A DNA stretch of 62,479 nucleotides from an uncultured Gammaproteobacteria bacterium. Lineage in GTDB: Bacteria > Patescibacteriota > Microgenomatia > UBA8517. Position 1 is the stretch's first letter. Each line of letters starts with the position of its first letter. Where the stretch lies: the NCBI GenBank assembly GCA_964568925.1, contig CAZMSJ010000004.1:1-62479 (forward strand), in the 5' to 3' direction. The notes under the pieces are model-generated. The model saw only the letters and a list, made by a program, of their open reading frames with translations, did no database searches and had not been told where the DNA came from. A program made the translations under genes and the position numbers. Below are positions 2,154-62,086 of the stretch, in pieces.

Positions 2154-3574
2154 GCTACATGTCAATTCCTACAAACATATTTAGAGGGTATGATATACGC
2201 GGGTTAACCGGAAGTGAATTAACTCCTGAACTTCTTGAAACGCTTGGAAAGGCATATGCAACGTTTCTTTATCGCAGACAGATTCGTGAATGTGTTGTTG
2301 GTATGGATATTCGTGAAACCTCACCAGTCTACAAAGAAGCGTTTATAAAAGGTTTGACCTCTCAAGGAATTGACGTAATCGATTTTGGACTAACTCTCAC
2401 TCAAATCATGTATTTCGCTCAATATCATTACCTTTCAAAAGGAGGAGCCATGATCACTGCATCTCACAACCCTCGTGAATTTAATGGATTAAAGTTAGCT
2501 GTTGGTTTTTCAGATACCCTGGTAGGTTCTGAAATTCAAGAGATTCGCCAAATTGCAGAAAGTGGCTCGTTTGCAGGCTGGGGCGCAACAGGTGCGGTCC
2601 GGGTTGATGATGTATTTCCTTTCTATAAGGCTGATTTGTTTAAACGAATTCCCCTTCATGATTCAGGGTTAACGGTTGTTGTTGATTCATCATGTGCAAC
2701 CACAGGTAAATTTTTACCAGAGATCTTACGTGAGGCTGGCTGCACGGTCATTGAACAAAACACAAATCTTGATCCTACCTTTCCGTTGGGTACTCCTGAC
2801 CCAACTGAGGAATCAGTGTTAAAACGCCTTTCTGATCGAGTTCTTGCTGAAGGTGCTGACTTAGGCGTGACCTATGACTCAGATGGTGATCGATTGGGGG
2901 TCGTAGACAGTACCGGACGACTGTTGTGGAATGATATTTTAGTAGCACTCTTTTCAAAAGATATTCTTCATTTCCTTCCAGGTAGTCCAATTGTGTTTAA
3001 CGCTCTTTGTTCAAAAACAGTTATTGATACGATTCATGCGGCCGGTGGAGTACCCACAATGTGGTTAACAGGACACAGTTTCATTAAGGCAAAAGTACGA
3101 GAAACAAGAGCTCCATTTGGAGGAGAACTCTCAGGACACTTTTTCTTTATGGATAATTTCTTTGGACATGATGATGGAGCATTTGCAACCTTGCGTCTTT
3201 TGCAATTTTTAAAGCGTGAAGGTAAGAAACTATCTCAAGTTGTTGATGAGCTTCCGGCATATATTGGGAGTCCAGAAATAAAGTTGGGCTTGGGGGACCA
3301 AATTAAGTTTGATTTCATCAAAAATCATTTTGCGAAAGACTTAATGGAACTTTTTCCTGGAGCAACATACACAGATATCGATGGGTTCCGCGCAGACAGC
3401 GAAACAGGAATGGCAATTATTCGAGCGAGCCAAAATGGTCCATATGTAACGATTAAGTTTGAAGGGAAAACCCAAGAAGAATATGATCGATTGAAGGTGT
3501 CACTTCGAGATATTTTAAAGAAATATCCCGAGGTTGATTGGACCTCGGGAGTAAATACTCATGCATTTGAGTAA
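2150..3574 (+). CDS. Phosphoglucomutase/phosphomannomutase (alpha-D-phosphohexomutase family)
   Basis: Phosphoserine loop MITASHNPREFNGLK, metal loop YDSDGDRLG and sugar loop GGELSGHFFF. Confidence 0.85.
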   Translation: MSYMSIPTNIFRGYDIRGLTGSELTPELLETLGKAYATFLYRRQIRECVVGMDIRETSPVYKEAFIKGLTSQGIDVIDFGLTLTQIMYFAQYHYLSKGGAMITASHNPREFNGLKLAVGFSDTLVGSEIQEIRQIAESGSFAGWGATGAVRVDDVFPFYKADLFKRIPLHDSGLTVVVDSSCATTGKFLPEILREAGCTVIEQNTNLDPTFPLGTPDPTEESVLKRLSDRVLAEGADLGVTYDSDGDRLGVVDSTGRLLWNDILVALFSKDILHFLPGSPIVFNALCSKTVIDTIHAAGGVPTMWLTGHSFIKAKVRETRAPFGGELSGHFFFMDNFFGHDDGAFATLRLLQFLKREGKKLSQVVDELPAYIGSPEIKLGLGDQIKFDFIKNHFAKDLMELFPGATYTDIDGFRADSETGMAIIRASQNGPYVTIKFEGKTQEEYDRLKVSLRDILKKYPEVDWTSGVNTHAFE

Positions 3575-55556: not shown

Positions 55557-56130
55557 TATCCATGCAGAGAACCCCGTACGAGCTACCTTGCAAGCGAAGC
55601 GCTGCGAGTGCGGGGGTGAATGGGGATATCACCTGAAAGGTGATATCCTGTTTCCGTGAGAATTCGTCAACTAAACCACAGTGTATATCAGGTGCTGTAC
55701 CATATTGTGTGGGGTACCAAGTATCGGAGAAATATATTGAAGGAGTATACAAAGGTTGAGTTAACAAAGAGTGTGTACAAAGTATTGAAGTCACACCCAG
55801 ATTGGTATCTCCAGAGCTTAAACACAGATCTAGATCATGTACATATCTTGATCGAAATACCTCCAAAATATGCAGTCTCCACCGTTATCCAACAAATTAA
55901 GGGAAGAACAGCACATGATTTGAGAAAAAGATTTTCCTATATCAATCGAATCTACAGCAAAACAGAGTCAATGTGGAGCCCAGGATACTTTGTATCCACG
56001 GTTGGGTTGAATGAGGAAACGATACGCAGGTATGTTGAGAGACAGGCAAGACAGGATGTGGGAATGGATATCACTGACGAGTTCTTACGGCCGCCCAAAG
56101 GAAACCCCGGACTTTAGTCCGGGGAGGAGG
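55557..56130 (+). mobile_element. IS200-type insertion sequence (IS200/IS605 family, tnpA only); ends approximate
   Basis: Y1 transposase ORF flanked by subterminal hairpins: GGATATCACC-tgaaa-GGTGATATCC (55624..55648) and CCCCGGAC-ttta-GTCCGGGG (56105..56124). The left flank is locally GC-rich. Confidence 0.65.
55656..56117 (+). CDS. tnpA: IS200/IS605 family Y1 (HUH) transposase TnpA
   Basis: YHIVWGTKYRR, HUH motif HVHILIEIP, and C-terminal PGYFVSTVG...IRRYVERQ tyrosine region. Length 153 aa. Confidence 0.85.
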   Translation: MRIRQLNHSVYQVLYHIVWGTKYRRNILKEYTKVELTKSVYKVLKSHPDWYLQSLNTDLDHVHILIEIPPKYAVSTVIQQIKGRTAHDLRKRFSYINRIYSKTESMWSPGYFVSTVGLNEETIRRYVERQARQDVGMDITDEFLRPPKGNPGL

Positions 56131-56269: not shown

Positions 56270-57106
56270 ATGCACCTAAAAAAATTCTACCCAGACACGA
56301 TTGTACCACTCCTCTTAACTTTTGCAGTATTTGCTTTTTTTGTAGCCCTTTTGTTTGGGGAAATTAAAGTATTAAACCTTTTAGTTATTGCTCGTGAGCC
56401 TATTTTAATTCGAATTCTTCTTTCAGATGTGTTAATTGGAATGACAATTTACCTGAAAACCTCGATAGATTTTGCCATTTTCATCGGAAGACTGATGAAT
56501 ACCTATCCTGGATGGAAGAACCGCGTCATGATTGAAATTGGAACGGCTGCAGGCAATGCTCTTGGCACCTTTGCCATTCTTATTATTTGGGATGTATTTC
56601 GAGAGGTGAGGTTTTTAATGGCGGCAATGATTGTCCTTGCTGCATTGGTATTAATTCGTATGGCAGAAGATGGTTTGGAGCATGCTCGTACCAAAGACAA
56701 AACCTATCCAGTTAACATCCTTAATTGGGTTCACTATTTTGAAAAAGCACTTCAAACGATAAATAAAGCTGTCGCTCCTGTTTTGTCACGTTTAATTCCA
56801 AATCTCTCTGTGAGTGAAAAGAAGAAGATAACTTTTAAAGGATTGTTCCTTCTCTCGTTTACCGTTCCTTTTATATTAGGTTTGGATGATTTTGCGGGCT
56901 ACATTCCATTGTTTAATGTCGTTAACGTCTTTGGTTTCGCAACTGGAGTTTTCCTTGGGCACATGATCTTAAATATATTCCTTTTCTTGTCTCCTCAGGC
57001 AACAATTCGTATTGTCAAAAATCCAATCATTTCGTTAATTGGAAGTGTTGCCTTCGTTGCTTTGGCTGTTTGGGGTATTGTGGAGGCCATCCACTTAGTG
57101 GGTTAA
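56270..57106 (+). CDS. Polytopic membrane protein, unknown function
   Basis: About 8 hydrophobic segments. Possible internal repeat (SIDFAIF and GLDDFAGY). Family not recognised. Confidence 0.55.
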   Translation: MHLKKFYPDTIVPLLLTFAVFAFFVALLFGEIKVLNLLVIAREPILIRILLSDVLIGMTIYLKTSIDFAIFIGRLMNTYPGWKNRVMIEIGTAAGNALGTFAILIIWDVFREVRFLMAAMIVLAALVLIRMAEDGLEHARTKDKTYPVNILNWVHYFEKALQTINKAVAPVLSRLIPNLSVSEKKKITFKGLFLLSFTVPFILGLDDFAGYIPLFNVVNVFGFATGVFLGHMILNIFLFLSPQATIRIVKNPIISLIGSVAFVALAVWGIVEAIHLVG

Positions 57107-57112
57107 CAAATG

Positions 57113-57134
57113 AAGCCACCATTTCTGGTGGCTT
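57113..57134. terminator. Bidirectional hairpin terminator
   Basis: AAGCCACCA-tttc-TGGTGGCTT between convergent genes. Confidence 0.65.
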
Positions 57135-57140
57135 ATCTTC

Positions 57141-57908
57141 TTACTTTCTACTCACAAATTGAGTAATTATCTTCTCTTGCTCTTCAAACGAACGTGGCCA
57201 GTGGCTGATTACCTCATCGATCATGCCAACTGATTCCTCAGTTGAGACTTGCTTCCTCACAAAATGTATAGAGGTCCCAAGTAAATCTTCACGCCCACCC
57301 GAAAAGCTAATATTGAAATCTTTCGGATGAGTATTAACCGGAAGGCGAGTAAACGTGATGATGTTAAAGAGTGGACTTGCGTAGATTGCTAAGGTTGTTT
57401 TGCCGAATAGACCGTGAAGAGCTACACCGTTTCCCGTAAGGCTGACTCTTTTTGCCAACCCGTTTTGCCAAACGAGCAGACTGAATTGTGATATTGCATG
57501 GCTCACAACATTTTCTTCTGCACGAAGATATTGCAATACCATCTGCTCGACAAACTTCATTTCTGTTACGTCTGCCGCTATTTTGGCAAGTTGCTCACAG
57601 AGGACTGGCCGATGGGGATCTTTCCCCAATTCAAAAATGTCTGGAATTGAATACACTCGTGCCTTTTCAACATACCTATTCCTAATCCGAGTTATCCCTG
57701 GAGCATCTGTTATCTTAAAATAGATCATCGCTTCACCTATGATTTTGGGAAGATCAAAAATGATATCTTTCTCCTCATAGGGATCAACAACCATTGCTTC
57801 TATGTACCAGGACAGAAATGTAACAATTTCGTCGTGGCCTAAGAACTCCTTCAATTTGTTTCTCTCAAGGTACCTCTTGAATCGTCTGACTAAACTTGCT
57901 TTGTTCAC
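57141..57908 (-). CDS. Hypothetical cytoplasmic protein (255 aa) downstream of the mini-peptide genes
   Basis: AAAGGAG SD 7 nt before the GTG at 57908. The track start (TTG at 57983) would run through the terminator hairpin at 57940..57962. Confidence 0.5.
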   Translation of the reverse strand: MNKASLVRRFKRYLERNKLKEFLGHDEIVTFLSWYIEAMVVDPYEEKDIIFDLPKIIGEAMIYFKITDAPGITRIRNRYVEKARVYSIPDIFELGKDPHRPVLCEQLAKIAADVTEMKFVEQMVLQYLRAEENVVSHAISQFSLLVWQNGLAKRVSLTGNGVALHGLFGKTTLAIYASPLFNIITFTRLPVNTHPKDFNISFSGGREDLLGTSIHFVRKQVSTEESVGMIDEVISHWPRSFEEQEKIITQFVSRK

Positions 57909-57930
57909 TGTCTGACTCCTTTTTATTGGT

Positions 57931-57962
57931 AAAAATAATGGGTTGGGGGAAACCCCCAACCC
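57931..57962 (-). terminator. GC-rich rho-independent terminator of mini-peptide gene 1
   Basis: GGGTTGGGGG-ttt-CCCCCAACCC on the minus strand followed by ATTATTTTT. Confidence 0.75.
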
Positions 57963-57976
57963 TAGACATACCTTCG

Positions 57977-58135
57977 CTAACAACCAGTCCCACAGCGAAC
58001 AGGAACAACCATTCCTACGCCACCTTGGACGACCACATGTTTGGACTCGATGTTACCTCGCCGGCCTGCTAATGCAGGAACGGTAACCGACGTAAGCGCC
58101 AGACACAGACATGCGATACTAAACAACTTCTTCAT
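57977..58135 (-). CDS. Secreted mini-peptide precursor 1 (52 aa)
   Basis: AAGGGAG SD. Translation is MKKLFSIACLCLALTSVTVPALA/GRRGNIESKHVVVQGGVGMVVPVRCGTGC. It has signal-peptide features, its own terminator, and a paralog immediately upstream. Confidence 0.6.
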   Translation of the reverse strand: MKKLFSIACLCLALTSVTVPALAGRRGNIESKHVVVQGGVGMVVPVRCGTGC

Positions 58136-58190
58136 CGTTTGTCTCCCTTGGGACAGATTAGCGAGAAAAGTAGTATACACAAAAAAATAG

Positions 58191-58224
58191 ACATAAAAAA
58201 GGGGCTGGGGGAAACCCCCAACCC
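58191..58224 (-). terminator. GC-rich rho-independent terminator of mini-peptide gene 2
   Basis: GGGTTGGGGG-ttt-CCCCCAGCCC (one mismatch) on the minus strand followed by TTTTTTATG. Confidence 0.75.
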
Positions 58225-58235
58225 AAGCGCCATCG

Positions 58236-58385
58236 CTAACAGTCACTTCCGCAGCGAATCGGAATTGAGATCGCTGGTCTTACAACTTTGGCTTCAATAT
58301 TGCCTCGACGACCAGCTGCAGCAGGTGCAACAACGGAGGCCAAAACCAAACAGAGTGAAACAATTCCTACGATCTTCTTCTTCAT
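58236..58385 (-). CDS. Secreted mini-peptide precursor 2 (49 aa), not in ORF track
   Basis: Hand translation gives MKKKIVGIVSLCLVLASVVAPAAA/GRRGNIEAKVVRPAISIPIRCGSDC. AAGGAG SD. It shares the GRRGNIE and RCGxxC blocks with peptide 1. Confidence 0.55.
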   Translation of the reverse strand: MKKKIVGIVSLCLVLASVVAPAAAGRRGNIEAKVVRPAISIPIRCGSDC

Positions 58386-58435
58386 TGTCGTGTCTCCTTA
58401 GGACAACGTTAGCGAGAAAAGTATAATATCAGACG

Positions 58436-58455
58436 AAAAGGGGTGTTACAACCCC
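58436..58455 (-). terminator. Hairpin terminator after tRNA-Leu
   Basis: GGGGT-tgtaac-ACCCC on the minus strand followed by TTTT. Confidence 0.5.
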
Positions 58456-58467
58456 ATTTTTGAAGTG

Positions 58468-58550
58468 TGCCAAGGGCGGGACTCGAACCCGCACGGGATT
58501 GCTCCCACACGCTCTTAAGGCGTGAGTGTCTGCCATTTCACCACCCTGGC
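58468..58550 (-). tRNA. tRNA-Leu (TAA)
   Basis: Hand-folded: acceptor GCCAGGG/CCTTGGC, anticodon stem CACGC/GCGTG with loop CTTAAGA, long variable arm GGGAGCAATCCC, T-arm GCGGGTTCGAGTCCCGC. Confidence 0.85.
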
Positions 58551-58585: not shown

Positions 58586-61111
58586 ATGAAGAATGTGGTG
58601 TTCTCGTATACTCGTTTGTCCGTGAGTTATTTACTTCCAAGACTCGGTACTAGTGAGGGTGGTTTAGCCTCAAAAGATGCAGAAGCACGACTTATTGCCC
58701 ACGGGAAAAATGAGTTGGCCAGTCAGAAAACAACAGCTCTTGCCGTCTTTCTTCGTCAGTTTAAGTCTCCCTTTGTCTATTTACTCATTGCCGCCGCTAT
58801 TTTGTCATTTATTTTAGGAGAAACAACTGATTCACTCTTTATTATTGTTTTTATCACAATTAATAGTGTCCTAGGCTTCTATCAGGAATATCAATCAGAG
58901 CAAACGGTTGCACTCCTTAAAAAACTTATTGATGCACGGGTAACAGTTGTACGTGATGGGAAAAACACATTAATCCCTGCATCAGATTTAGTGCCAGGGG
59001 ATATTGTTATCCTGTCTCCTGGTGACATTGCTCAAGCTGACCTTCGATTTATTGATGTTAAAAATTTTACCGTTGATGAGTCAATTTTAACGGGGGAGAG
59101 TGAGGCGCAGGCAAAGACTGCAAGTGAAATTACAACAAAAGTTACTGAGCTGTATGAAGCCACAAACTGTATGTTTGCTGGTACAACAGCAATTGGCGGT
59201 TGGGCGAAAGCAGTTGTTGTCGCAACTGGTCATGACAAAGTCATTTCTCAAATTGCTGAAAAGACCGTTAATACAAATCGAGAAAGTACTTTTGAAAAAG
59301 GCATCTCTTCATTTAGTCGTCTAATTCTAAAAATTGTCGGTGTAACAATTATTCTAATGATTGTGGCAAACCTGTTAGTAAAAGGAGCTGACAGTAACCT
59401 GCCAGAATTACTTCTCTTCTCAATTGCCCTCTCTGTCTCTGTTATCCCTGAAGCACTTCCTGTTGTTACAACCTTCTCATTGTCTCAAGGTGCAAGAAAG
59501 CTTGCACAAAAGAAAGTTATTGTGAAACGACTCTCTGCAATTGAAGACTTAGGAAGTATCTCTGTTTTGTGTACAGATAAGACGGGAACGATTACCCAAA
59601 ACAATATGATATTAACGTCTCGCATTTCATACAAAGGAGCTGATGTGTTTTGGTGGGCAGCACTTGGCTCTGATTTTGTAGGGAACAAAGTACATCTACA
59701 GGAGCTTAACTCCTTTGATGCAGGACTCTACCCAAAGATTGGTGACGAGATTCACGAGAAGCTTAAAAAAGTTAATCGTATGAGCGAACTTCCTTTTGAC
59801 CCTGTCAGAAGAAGAACAACGGTTGTCGTTTCAGACAACAAGGATCTCTATTTAGTTTCTCGTGGAGCCCCAGAGAATATTCTTGAATTATGTGGAACAG
59901 TGCAGAAAAGAGAAGAGATAGAAAAGTGGATCACAAAAGAAGGCCTGACCGGACACAGAATAATGGCAATTGCCTACAAGAAACTAGTCAAAGACACCAA
60001 GGACTTATCCAAAGCGGAGAAAGACTTGACTTTCGTTGGTTTACTCTCATATGACGATCCATTAAAGCCATCTACTCATTTGGCTATGCAGAAAGCCACT
60101 GAACTTGGCGTGCAAATTAAAATTATTACGGGAGACAGACCAGAAGTGGCTGGAGCCGTTGCAACAGAAATTGGCCTTATCTCAAATCCACATGACGTTA
60201 TTACGGGGGCTCAGTTTATGGCAATGAATGAAGAAGAAAAAGATGATGTAGTTTTAGCTCATCATGTGTTTGCTCGTGTTGCTCCACTTCAAAAATATGA
60301 AATTGTGAAGAGACTTCAATCACATTTTGAAGTTGGGTTTTTAGGAGAAGGAATAAACGATGCCCCCGCACTTAAAGTAGCTAACGTTGGAATTGTTGTG
60401 GCAAGTGGTTCTGATATTTCAAAAGATGCAGGGGACATTATTCTCCTCAATCAAAGTTTACTTACAATCGTTGAAGGAATTGAAGGGGGAAGAAAAGTTT
60501 TTGCAAATACCGTTAAATATATTAAGGCAACCTTAACCAGTAACTTTGGTAACTTCTATGCTGTGGCTATCTCTTCGTTATTTATTCCTTTCTTACCAAT
60601 GCTTCCGATACAAATTTTATTGGTAAATATGCTGTCAGATTTTCCAATGATTAGTATTGCAACTGACAAAGTAGATGCAGAAGAATTAACATCACCAAAG
60701 CAATATGACATAAAGGATGTTGCTGTTTCGTCAACCATCTTAGGGTTAGTCAGCACCTGTTTTGATTTCCTCACCTTTGCTTTGTTCTTTAGACTCGCTC
60801 CATCAGTACTACAAACCAATTGGTTTATGGAAAGTATTTTAACTGAACTCGTTTTAATCTATTCAATCAGAAGCAAGCGAAGTATGTTTAAAGCAGGAAG
60901 ACCATCAAAAACAATACTTTTCTTAACAATTGTCGCAGCTCTTGTTACCGTTGTTGTTCCCTTTACCTCTTTTGGACACAAGACATTTAGCTTTGTTACT
61001 CCAACCCTTGCTCATGTGTTAACGATCATTGCGATCGTTGTCTGTTACTTAATTACAACAGAAATTGCAAAGGTTGCATTGTTTAAAGTAAGACGACTTT
61101 CAGCCAAATAA
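58586..61111 (+). CDS. P-type ATPase, MgtA-like (magnesium-transporting type)
   Basis: TGES (LTGESEA), CTDKTGTITQN, and GEGINDAPALK. The TM motif IPFLPMLPIQILLVNMLSDF and KVIVKRLSAIEDLG resemble MgtA. Confidence 0.8.
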   Translation: MKNVVFSYTRLSVSYLLPRLGTSEGGLASKDAEARLIAHGKNELASQKTTALAVFLRQFKSPFVYLLIAAAILSFILGETTDSLFIIVFITINSVLGFYQEYQSEQTVALLKKLIDARVTVVRDGKNTLIPASDLVPGDIVILSPGDIAQADLRFIDVKNFTVDESILTGESEAQAKTASEITTKVTELYEATNCMFAGTTAIGGWAKAVVVATGHDKVISQIAEKTVNTNRESTFEKGISSFSRLILKIVGVTIILMIVANLLVKGADSNLPELLLFSIALSVSVIPEALPVVTTFSLSQGARKLAQKKVIVKRLSAIEDLGSISVLCTDKTGTITQNNMILTSRISYKGADVFWWAALGSDFVGNKVHLQELNSFDAGLYPKIGDEIHEKLKKVNRMSELPFDPVRRRTTVVVSDNKDLYLVSRGAPENILELCGTVQKREEIEKWITKEGLTGHRIMAIAYKKLVKDTKDLSKAEKDLTFVGLLSYDDPLKPSTHLAMQKATELGVQIKIITGDRPEVAGAVATEIGLISNPHDVITGAQFMAMNEEEKDDVVLAHHVFARVAPLQKYEIVKRLQSHFEVGFLGEGINDAPALKVANVGIVVASGSDISKDAGDIILLNQSLLTIVEGIEGGRKVFANTVKYIKATLTSNFGNFYAVAISSLFIPFLPMLPIQILLVNMLSDFPMISIATDKVDAEELTSPKQYDIKDVAVSSTILGLVSTCFDFLTFALFFRLAPSVLQTNWFMESILTELVLIYSIRSKRSMFKAGRPSKTILFLTIVAALVTVVVPFTSFGHKTFSFVTPTLAHVLTIIAIVVCYLITTEIAKVALFKVRRLSAK

Positions 61112-61147: not shown

Positions 61148-62086
61148 TTAGAACTGGCAAACGTTAGCTACTTCTGTGTAGTTTCCTACAAAGGTTAACT
61201 CACCTTCCGGTGAGAGAAGTGAGAGCCCATTATCTTGAACAAGAGCCATTAGATTAATTCCCTTTTGAAACCAGTAGAAGGTCTCAATTGGAATTTTCGA
61301 TGAAAAGACTCGTGTCCTACTGCCCGTAATTGCATTGCTTTTCACAATCGCATCAGTGTCATCTTCTGAGACAAGATATGCAATTGAATTACCACTATTT
61401 GACCACACACTTTTCTTGACGGTTTTGGCTAAGGGAAAGCGATAGCGATGATCTGTTTGCCTAACGTCAACTTCATTGTCTACCGTTTCGCTTACAAACT
61501 GATCATCAACTGACCACTGATAGATTATCTTCGCATCATCTACTCGATACGAGTAATCATTCAGGTCCCAGGTGTTTGTTTGGTCACCCAGGGTAAATGA
61601 GAAATAACGACTACTAGGACTCCATACAAAGTTGCTTCCTTGCTCGTAGTTACCAATGTATGTTGTTATTTTGCTCTTTGTTTCAAGCAAAATAATTCCA
61701 TTATTTCGAACGATCGCTGCAGTTAACCCATCGGGTGAAACCGACAAACGACTGATGTTTTTAACAACGGTCGTTTCGTTTGTTACCCCATTAACGATCG
61801 CTGCAGTGAAAATCCCTGCCTCATTTGCTTCGGTGTAGCCGACGAGAAAGAAGGTATCTTTGCCACAGGTCAAATCAAATGTTTTGTAGCCAGGAATCCC
61901 GTCGTTCACGAGAATGATTTGTTTGAAATGAATGTCGTAAAAGTACTCATGGAACGTCTCGTCTCCCGGTTCTTTCGCCTGAAAAACGATTCCTTGTGGT
62001 ACTTTTCCCTGATCACGATTGGCGTCTTGCGCCTTTACGGCCTGAGTGCCAATGATTAATAGTAGTAGTAGGAAAAACTTCTTCAC
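61148..62086 (-). CDS. Secreted hypothetical protein, possibly beta-propeller (PD40-like repeats)
   Basis: Signal peptide MKKFFLLLLLIIGTQAVKA. Recurring SPDG/WSPS/WSNSG segments resemble TolB-type repeats. This is a weak call. Confidence 0.45.
   Translation of the reverse strand: MKKFFLLLLLIIGTQAVKAQDANRDQGKVPQGIVFQAKEPGDETFHEYFYDIHFKQIILVNDGIPGYKTFDLTCGKDTFFLVGYTEANEAGIFTAAIVNGVTNETTVVKNISRLSVSPDGLTAAIVRNNGIILLETKSKITTYIGNYEQGSNFVWSPSSRYFSFTLGDQTNTWDLNDYSYRVDDAKIIYQWSVDDQFVSETVDNEVDVRQTDHRYRFPLAKTVKKSVWSNSGNSIAYLVSEDDTDAIVKSNAITGSRTRVFSSKIPIETFYWFQKGINLMALVQDNGLSLLSPEGELTFVGNYTEVANVCQF

Follow-up and report, generated by a model that had tools for sequence, protein, structure and literature searches.

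A tandem pair of small peptide genes

This report concerns two very small genes that lie in tandem on the minus strand of contig CAZMSJ010000004.1 (GenBank assembly GCA_964568925.1), in a stretch of 62,479 nucleotides that is called the window below and was analysed at its full length. An initial annotation, made from the letters of the sequence alone, had taken them for paralogous genes of secreted mini-peptides. Both open reading frames (ORFs) were reproduced where that annotation had placed them and with the translations that it had given; as entered in the ORF list they are:

58385 down to 58236, minus strand: gene 2, the ORF of a type A cassette (types are described below), with a precursor of 49 amino acids (aa), MKKKIVGIVSLCLVLASVVAPAAA followed by GRRGNIEAKVVRPAISIPIRCGSDC; full translation MKKKIVGIVSLCLVLASVVAPAAAGRRGNIEAKVVRPAISIPIRCGSDC
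58135 down to 57977, minus strand: gene 1, the ORF of a type B cassette, with a 52-aa precursor, MKKLFSIACLCLALTSVTVPALA followed by GRRGNIESKHVVVQGGVGMVVPVRCGTGC; full translation MKKLFSIACLCLALTSVTVPALAGRRGNIESKHVVVQGGVGMVVPVRCGTGC

The two peptides are 53% identical (BLASTP, E=4e-16), which bears out their paralogy, and the window holds two copies of the DNA motif for P-[VI]-R-C-G-x-x-C-stop, where chance alone would give 0.01. Gene 2 had also been called invisible; it does fall under the length cutoff of the ORF list used at that time, but an orthologue is already annotated as a hypothetical protein in metagenome-assembled genomes (MAGs) in GenBank (MBP7119277.1). It is highly probable that these are real secreted-peptide genes of a new family. 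Judged from its sequences, this previously undescribed family is marked by a predicted Sec signal together with a C-terminal P[VI]RCGxxC-COOH, and its distribution, as far as sequence labels go, is one Woesebacteria-labelled clade plus Anaerolineaceae.

Coding status and selection

Protein searches retrieved near-identical as well as divergent orthologues on 13 other contigs (loci L001-L012 and L017). Those of gene 2 are identical or one residue different in 10 related contigs, and those of gene 1 are present in L001, L002, L011, L012 and L017. Two GenBank MAGs with identical proteins carry the label 'Candidatus Woesebacteria bacterium', and a conflicting label exists for the same clade, a third-party CONCOCT bin with L017 being named 'uncultured Chlamydiae bacterium'.

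Are such short ORFs coding at all? Both are genuine coding genes under purifying selection. In the orthologue set, variable sites at codon positions 1/2/3 number 0/1/5 in type A, where five of the six are third-position and synonymous, 1/4/19 in type C, a third paralogue type, and 16/11/29 in type B, in which most replacements are in the signal peptide and retain its hydrophobicity. The ratio of nonsynonymous to synonymous substitution rates (dN/dS, Nei-Gojobori) in the mature region is 0.03-0.18, even with dS up to 0.8-2.5; for the type B mature region against divergent orthologues it is 0.09-0.11, and the type B comparison between the window and L001 has Sd=12 and Nd=5. Indels between types are multiples of 3 nt, and the frame is retained. 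The initial annotation had named the opposite-strand ORF 58139-58426, if expression came only from there, as a possible refuter of its proposal. This 95-aa ORF is broken in the sister strain L002, where 53 aa are left. By coordinate arithmetic, moreover, the sense third codon positions are the second codon positions of the antisense ORF, and therefore nearly all of the observed substitutions would alter amino acids of the latter.

If the units were two copies of a small structured RNA or of a repeat element with chance ORFs, one could understand why their non-coding boundaries are better conserved between the two units than the ORFs, and why a helix from leader to stop codon is predicted in 12 of 13 cassettes. 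But the third-position bias together with the dN/dS values, the frame that survives indels between types, and the protein-level homologues that use different codons in another phylum effectively refute this non-coding reading, to which we give next to no probability.

Predicted export and mature peptides

Signal peptides were judged by classical rules, that is by n-region charge, hydrophobic core and cleavage residues, and not by SignalP. By these rules all 17 family members (the two of the window and 15 relatives) carry canonical signals for Sec and signal peptidase I (SPase I), with 2-4 Lys/Arg in the n-region, a hydrophobic core of 12-16 residues with a mean Kyte-Doolittle (KD) value of 2.1-3.1, and Pro at -4, Ala or Val at -3 and Ala at -1 of the cleavage region. 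The Lys-rich n-region, hydrophobic core and AxA-type site that the initial annotation had pointed out in both window genes conform to this pattern:

58314..58385, minus strand: predicted Sec signal peptide of gene 2, 24 codons, cleavage after AAA; 3 Lys, 15-residue core (mean KD 2.9), Pro at -4, Ala at -3 and -1
58067..58135, minus strand: predicted Sec signal peptide of gene 1, 23 codons, cleavage after ALA

In the AlphaFold2 model of the gene 1 precursor, residues 2-26 form a single helix with a predicted local distance difference test score (pLDDT) of 72-78, and the weak, sub-threshold NCBIfam matches all fall in N-terminal signal regions of secreted-protein families. The predicted mature products have 29 aa (gene 1) and 25 aa (gene 2) with a net charge of +3, as was first proposed. 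Each consists of a polar head, GRRGNIE(S/A)K, then a short hydrophobic stretch with many beta-branched residues, and finally the invariant C-terminal P(V/I)RCGxxC, whose Cys pair may be either a CxxxC disulfide loop or a dithiol. A beta-hairpin fold of the mature part is only a reading of the residue pattern. Lipoproteins were also considered and rejected; the lipobox L-[AS]-[GA]-C is absent, and the core Cys follows Leu, lies 10 residues from the N-terminus and is Gly in the relative P0004.

Anatomy of the transcription units

Each gene forms a small unit of its own, with the following features in the order of transcription:

58423..58451, minus strand: promoter-like site of unit 2 (consensus scan), TTGTAA-17-TATTAT, with TG upstream of the -10 box
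58409..58422, minus strand: leader ACTTTTCTCGCTAA of unit 2, its CGCUAA being the 5' arm of a long-range helix
58394..58399, minus strand: Shine-Dalgarno (SD) sequence AAGGAG of gene 2, read from the sequence and conserved in all cassettes
58233..58239, minus strand: TTAGCGA over the gene 2 stop codon, 3' arm of the leader helix and cassette boundary
58192..58224, minus strand: intrinsic-terminator-like hairpin GGGTTGGGGGTTTCCCCCAGCCC with T-run, unit 2 (hairpin 58224-58202)
58172..58177, minus strand: TATACT, the -10-like hexamer of unit 1, whose register is that of the -10 in unit 2 and in every other cassette
58158..58171, minus strand: leader ACTTTTCTCGCTAA of unit 1, 5' arm of the long-range helix
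58143..58149, minus strand: SD AAGGGAG of gene 1, read from the sequence
57974..57980, minus strand: TTAGCGA over the gene 1 stop codon, 3' arm of the leader helix, exactly where the flank becomes that of a last cassette
57930..57962, minus strand: intrinsic-terminator-like hairpin GGGTTGGGGGTTTCCCCCAACCC with T-run, unit 1 (hairpin 57962-57940)

The consensus scan gave no match for a -35 element of unit 1, and the -10 box is conserved in the same register across all cassettes. The 14-nt leader has exactly two occurrences in the window (58171-58158 and 58422-58409). Both hairpins read GGGTTGGGGGTTTCCCCCA(A/G)CCC and have 10 bp, eight of them G-C pairs, before the T-run; across cassettes the stem is retained via compensatory changes, for example GGGTTGGGGG/CCCCCAACCC versus GAGCTGGGGG/CCCCCAGCTC. 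When unit 1 is aligned with unit 2, the -10 box, leader, SD, stop-codon context and hairpin are better conserved than the ORFs, and the non-coding parts are conserved across 12 distinct cassettes. This alignment agrees with the early view that SD, leader and terminator were duplicated as parts of whole units, and extends it to the promoter-like box. The window is not especially AT-rich as had been stated, its G+C content being 39-43%.

It is to be noted that the leader is complementary to the stop-codon region (UCGCUAA : UUAGCGA), 58164-58158 pairing with 57980-57974 in unit 1 and 58415-58409 with 58239-58233 in unit 2. In 12 of 13 distinct cassette transcripts this helix has a pair probability of 0.7 or more, but for gene 2 of the window the value is only 0.08 (ViennaRNA). 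RNAalifold retains 8 bp of it in 12 of 12 sequences; both arms are invariant, hence this gives no covariation evidence. The sequence of the helix coincides with the boundary at which cassettes recombine. It may serve mRNA stability or translational control, or be a recombination site. The plus strand has a promoter-like site antisense to the gene 2 leader (58400-58427, AGGACA-16-TATAAT, 10 of 12 matches); the site points through the antisense of a tRNA-Leu gene towards a P-type ATPase gene (58586-61111), and may drive that gene or be a chance product of the palindromic -10 region.

Tandem small hydrophobic ORFs, each with its own promoter and terminator, also call to mind type I toxins. The N-terminal segment would then stay uncleaved as a membrane anchor, and the copies would resemble the antisense-RNA-controlled ldr, ibs or hok arrays. 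The strongly structured mRNA (the fold of the whole gene 1 transcript has z=-4.6) and the plus-strand promoter-like site antisense to the gene 2 leader would suit such small membrane proteins. However, all 17 members, from two phyla, share the Pro(-4)/AxA cleavage motif, and the longer members of the family have linkers rich in Ser, Thr and Pro, as is typical for extracellular proteins. There is no lipobox, the core Cys is not conserved in P0004, and the conserved antisense feature points away from the peptide genes. We regard uncleaved membrane toxins as very unlikely. A type I toxin would be an uncleaved membrane peptide with an overlapping antisense RNA as its antitoxin; in the consensus scan no convergent antisense promoter was found over the peptide ORFs.

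Cassette arrays in related strains

Among related strains the paralogues are of three types, and these are arranged in arrays that differ from locus to locus:

type A: 49 aa, ...VVRPAISIPIRCGSDC
type B: 52 aa, ...HVVVQGGVGM[VT]VPVRCG(TG/NN)C
type C: 51 aa, GS[KR]SNI[EA]SKRVVVKESIMTVPVRCG(NN/TG)C
array A-B: the window and L011
array A-B-C: L002
array A-C: L003-L010
array A-C-B: L012
array B alone: L001 and L017, whose clade has this single cassette only

All cassettes have a common order, namely a T-rich stretch, a -10 hexamer (TATACT, TATTAT or TATGAT, with TGn before it in most), the leader ACTTTTCTCGCTAA, the SD AAGGAG, the ORF and the hairpin; the ORFs start ATGAAGAAG and end TG(T/C)TAGCG. 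The 3' flank is set by the position in the array and not by the cassette type, with the junction exactly at TGTTAGCG. The B cassette of the window and the terminal C cassettes of L002 and L003 have the same downstream flank, so that the window array looks like that of L002 minus one unit. Within genes, type C of L002 and L012 differ with a dS of 0.19 in the signal-peptide half versus 2.5 in the mature half, and type B of L001 and L012 with 1.0 versus 0.10, respectively. The TG/NN tail also swaps between cassette types. The contrast of dS within genes and these swaps point to recombination inside cassettes. We are therefore confident that cassettes have been gained, lost and recombined at conserved boundaries. 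The first idea of a duplication followed by divergence stands in so far as whole units were duplicated, but this was not a one-off event: a three-type array has one to three copies in variable order, with recombination both at the boundaries and within genes.

A wider family in Anaerolineaceae

How far does the family extend? A profile of the short forms only matches P0006 (64 aa) at E=0.1 in 5.8 billion proteins, and the C-terminal 11-mer of P0006, MTVPVRCGNNC, is identical to that of short forms. An exhaustive hidden Markov model search of 1.84 billion representatives gave nine clusters in all (E<=0.001), five of them new (P0009-P0013, 63-69 aa; E=1e-5 to 3e-9 with the combined profile). With a degenerate DNA pattern of motif plus stop, 10 stretches were found in metagenome contigs, six of which are clear members. 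In the scan of GTDB-species genomes one locus (L017) was confirmed among 108 pattern matches, with the short form as query, so that long forms were possibly discarded. An alignment of 12 sequences from two phyla shows P[VI]RCGxxC unchanged in all of them and the remainder variable. The motif [ST/V][VLI]P[VI]RCGxxC directly before the stop is nearly diagnostic, as six of the 10 metagenome stretches show.

The long forms are built of a signal peptide, a Ser/Thr/Pro-rich acidic linker, a hydrophobic stretch and the motif. By the names of neighbour genes and peptides they belong to Anaerolineaceae/Chloroflexota, one being from a wastewater metagenome, and their genes are single-copy and monocistronic with a hairpin of their own. 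The Woesebacteria-labelled lineage has the basic GRRGNIESK head in place of the acidic linker, and the net charge is +3/+4 in the short forms and -3 to 0 in the Anaerolineae forms. The Anaerolineae relatives thus share the C-terminal core at a neutral or negative charge, from which it follows that the cationic character that had suggested an antimicrobial peptide is not a family trait.

Long-form genes sit between a KAS-4HBT-HIT-U160 group and a gene for a kinase of about 610 aa with tetratricopeptide repeat (TPR), HisKA and HATPase domains and no predicted transmembrane segment. U160, a 160-aa single-pass membrane protein without a family match, is usually encoded upstream of the long-form gene. 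Neither this kinase nor U160 appears to be characterised. The kinase genes directly downstream of a long form include:

L013 6413-8254
L016 6442-8268
L025 1257-3083
L027 266-2092
L029 4526-6343

In L029-L031 an esterase gene lies between U160 and the peptide gene; the kinase is still directly downstream in L029 and L030, and in L031 the contig ends inside the gene downstream of the peptide gene. The kinases are 66-83% identical to each other, hence the synteny should be taken as a lead; it does not prove that the genes are linked in function. A tblastn search found no homologue of the kinase or of U160 in the 62-kb window.

This arrangement gives rise to the main rival of an effector function, a pheromone of the Phr/PapR kind (RRNPP-like), for which a Sec-exported pro-peptide would be trimmed outside and its C-terminal piece re-imported or sensed to bind a TPR-type receptor. 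The adjacent kinase would be this receptor in Anaerolineae; in the Woesebacteria-labelled lineage it would be some other protein, possibly a 255-aa orphan encoded next to the array, or else the Anaerolineae receptor would be addressed, as cross-talk or mimicry. Phr and PapR signals lie at the extreme C-terminus of their precursors, which is the most conserved part here, and Phr, PapR and NprX pro-peptides are Sec-exported precursors of 40-70 aa with a conserved, presumably active C-terminal part, to which the predicted signal peptide and the conserved C-terminus of the present precursors may correspond. Long forms lie directly upstream of the kinase, a TPR histidine kinase without predicted transmembrane segments, in L013, L014, L016, L025, L027 and L029-L030; the incomplete genes downstream in L028 and L031 would agree with this, and the adjacency survives the esterase insertion. 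In Anaerolineae only, the peptide gene adjoins a cytoplasmic TPR-domain sensor as in RRNPP systems. Purifying selection within each cassette type and the constant linkage of the 255-aa gene to the array also fit. However, the synteny may simply be inherited within one family of kinases as similar as these, and the Anaerolineae partner is a TPR-histidine kinase fusion, not Rap, NprR or PlcR. The window yielded neither a TPR protein nor a kinase nor an Opp system, no TPR receptor gene lies near its peptide genes, and by hhalign the 255-aa protein does not resemble the TPR kinase (probability 0.1). The cores of pheromones usually differ from one species to the next, but the present core is invariant across phyla. 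We consider a pheromone rather unlikely.

Long forms alternate hydrophobic and polar residues just before the motif, as in FTVTLSIPIR and SVMTFSLSLPIR, a pattern that would suit exported amphipathic beta-strand peptides which self-assemble on the cell surface, their C-terminal Cys cross-linking subunits. Multi-copy genes, and monocistronic ones with strong terminators as expected for abundant products, would fit such a structural role too. The chaplins of Streptomyces (PF03777), which are surface-active and amyloid, are similarly small, hydrophobic and secreted by Sec, and they occur as several paralogues with a conserved pair of Cys; VPVRCGN locally resembles the chaplin motif PVNVCGN, which is only a lead. 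Unlike chaplins, however, the peptides give no match to PF03777 or any other Pfam family even at E<=10, and Cys spacing, length and taxon differ; the short forms have only about 13 hydrophobic residues, and AlphaFold2 predicts no strands. A chaplin-like function is improbable.

Could the family have crossed between phyla lately? A recent gene transfer finds no support; the 11 codons shared by L013 and the short forms differ at five of 11 third positions, about what independent codon choice would give. One may still imagine that the peptide core moved between phyla, most simply from Anaerolineae to one Woesebacteria lineage within the candidate phyla radiation (CPR), and that its cationic multi-copy versions engage the Anaerolineae partner, as mimicry or signal interference by an epibiont, but this is a long shot.

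The linked gene and the neighbourhood

One further gene accompanies the array, and a tRNA gene precedes it:

57141..57908, minus strand: 255-aa orphan gene, GTG start, SD AAGGAG, directly downstream of the array
58467-58550: tRNA-Leu(UAA) gene, immediately upstream of both peptide genes

The 255-aa gene follows the last cassette in every related locus whose contig extends past the array, including L001 and L017 despite their different upstream context. Its start codon is 31 nt past the terminator hairpin, and the consensus scan found no minus-strand promoter between the two. On account of this gap and the missing promoter, we infer that the gene is probably expressed through read-through of the terminator. 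Its product, described as cytoplasmic, has only two homologue clusters in 5.8 billion proteins, with no Pfam, NCBIfam or PDB match and no homology detected outside the clade. The AlphaFold2 model is unusable (pLDDT 43). By hhalign the family is related neither to the Anaerolineae TPR kinase nor to U160.

Convergent to this gene lies one for a 278-aa multi-pass membrane protein without family match (56270-57106, plus strand), and a bidirectional terminator-like hairpin at 57113-57134 is common to both. The 278-aa gene is syntenic in most of those related loci whose length allows a comparison, namely L003-L007, L011 and L017, with partial copies in L001 and L012. It is not part of the synteny in L002, where a Y1 transposase gene comes directly after the 255-aa gene (2839-3270). 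In the window this IS200/IS605-type transposase gene is at 55656-56117 (plus strand) beside tRNA-Pro, and it is absent from the corresponding region of L003. The differing placement among the window, the near-identical L002 and L003 suggests a recently mobile insertion sequence. For the peptide genes themselves there was no match in phage or plasmid collections, and the motif pattern had zero members among viral contigs, phage records and plasmid records, so that nothing supports an origin from a phage or plasmid. The more distant clade has an insert of about 910 bp with small ORFs, placed exactly behind the 3' end of tRNA-Leu (L017 887-1795, and L001 1-700); the right junction in L017 repeats the tRNA 3' flank and hairpin (GCACACTTCAAAAAGGGGTTGTAAC...), and this insert may be a small integrated element. 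A 312-aa protein at 61148-62086 (minus strand) has faint matches of beta-propeller type only (propeller regions of lasso-peptide isopeptidase and Dpp5, Tricorn_2nd). The window has no rRNA gene.

As both cysteines are invariant and a P-type cation ATPase is encoded divergently upstream, the peptides could also be imagined as secreted thiol peptides or metal binders, the CxxxC dithiol (with a His in type B) chelating a thiophilic metal or carrying out extracytoplasmic redox chemistry, perhaps linked to the ATPase. But this ATPase is of the P2/Mg type and not of the heavy-metal type, and the tRNA gene separates it from the array. In L017 it is not adjacent, about 910 bp lying between tRNA-Leu and the single B cassette, and it is absent from the Anaerolineae loci; two thiols are, besides, a minimal metal site. 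Such a role is highly improbable.

Comparison with known systems and a proposed mechanism

Nothing above noise was found in Pfam, NCBIfam, PADLOC or PHROGs for the two peptides, the long forms, the 255-aa and 278-aa neighbours or U160, nor any PDB sequence match for the alignments of the 255-aa protein and U160. Text searches of the literature collection used here gave no mention of the motif, and none of an association between Woesebacteria and Anaerolineae. The initial annotation had likewise recognised no described family.

In outline the peptides resemble Sec-dependent class II bacteriocins such as enterocin P and hiracin JM79 (pediocin-box class IIa), which have small precursors with an ordinary Sec signal and no double-glycine leader, and cationic mature peptides with a hydrophobic part and an invariant motif that holds a disulfide-capable Cys pair. 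Unlike these, the present peptides have no YGNGV pediocin box and no Pfam or NCBIfam bacteriocin match, their motif is at the extreme C-terminus with CxxxC spacing, and the Anaerolineae homologues are anionic. As for a class II immunity gene, neither the 255-aa orphan nor the convergent 278-aa membrane protein matches a known immunity family, though either might have a novel immunity function. In design only, the animal antimicrobial peptides of the Rana-box brevinin/ranalexin kind and thanatin are also cationic peptides of 20-30 aa that end in a short Cys-bridged loop, but they come from another kingdom with no homology, and their loops have 6-8 residues versus 3 here. Two further candidates were rejected: AgrD-type peptides (no AgrB-like neighbour, a classical Sec signal, and a peptide that ends at the second Cys) and precursors of ribosomally synthesised and post-translationally modified peptides such as SCIFF/ranthipeptides, sactipeptides or lanthipeptides (no maturase neighbour, no NCBIfam precursor match, Sec signal present).

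The best explanation, to which we assign a probability of about 0.45 as a whole, is as follows. Each of the two separately transcribed mini-genes would encode a Sec-exported pro-peptide, which signal peptidase I would cut after AxA to release cationic peptides of 25 and 29 aa. Their site of action would lie outside the producer, where the invariant C-terminal loop would bind one specific, conserved partner, and the downstream 255-aa orphan would probably be expressed by terminator read-through. In the Woesebacteria-labelled lineage, with its cationic linker and amplified genes, the peptides would most likely be inter-bacterial effectors, either antagonistic (bacteriocin-like) or modulating a host or neighbour. 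Cleavage, disulfide formation, an extracellular target and the effector role are thus all predicted steps. That eight residues stay invariant in a small peptide which otherwise changes fast speaks for a protein partner over non-specific membrane activity. The effector role, possible on the sequence evidence but somewhat short of even odds, is favoured by the basic head in place of the acidic linker and by up to three gene copies, and the lack of a homologue of the Anaerolineae kinase or U160 from the window also speaks for it.

Several points weigh on the other side. No immunity, ABC-transporter or other bacteriocin-type gene was recognised near the window genes in Pfam, NCBIfam and PADLOC/PHROGs scans, and a cognate receptor could lie outside the 62 kb examined. 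Anaerolineae homologues are anionic, therefore positive charge is not needed for the core function of the family. Selection on the mature peptides is purifying, whereas arms-race effectors often show the diversifying kind. The mature part of gene 1 has no confident fold (AlphaFold2, pLDDT <50), and disulfide formation is uncertain if the organism lives in anoxic habitats.

What the family may mean

What we have here is a compact, narrowly distributed family of predicted exported peptides with an invariant C-terminal epitope, encoded in tidy cassettes whose copy number differs between strains. The build itself, that of small Sec-secreted Cys-loop peptides, is known in kind; the unusual features are the diagnostic C-terminal motif, the strain-variable arrays and the distribution over CPR and Chloroflexota. 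The family is a useful test case for the annotation of small ORFs in metagenome-assembled genomes, and peptides of 25-29 aa are short enough to synthesise, so that antagonism, signalling through the TPR kinase and mimicry are directly testable. CPR bacteria are thought to live attached to other cells, yet few secreted mediators of such contacts are known. If the less probable idea of transfer and mimicry were true, an ultra-small bacterium would over-produce peptides that carry the Anaerolineae epitope MTVPVRCGNNC towards a filamentous host or neighbour.

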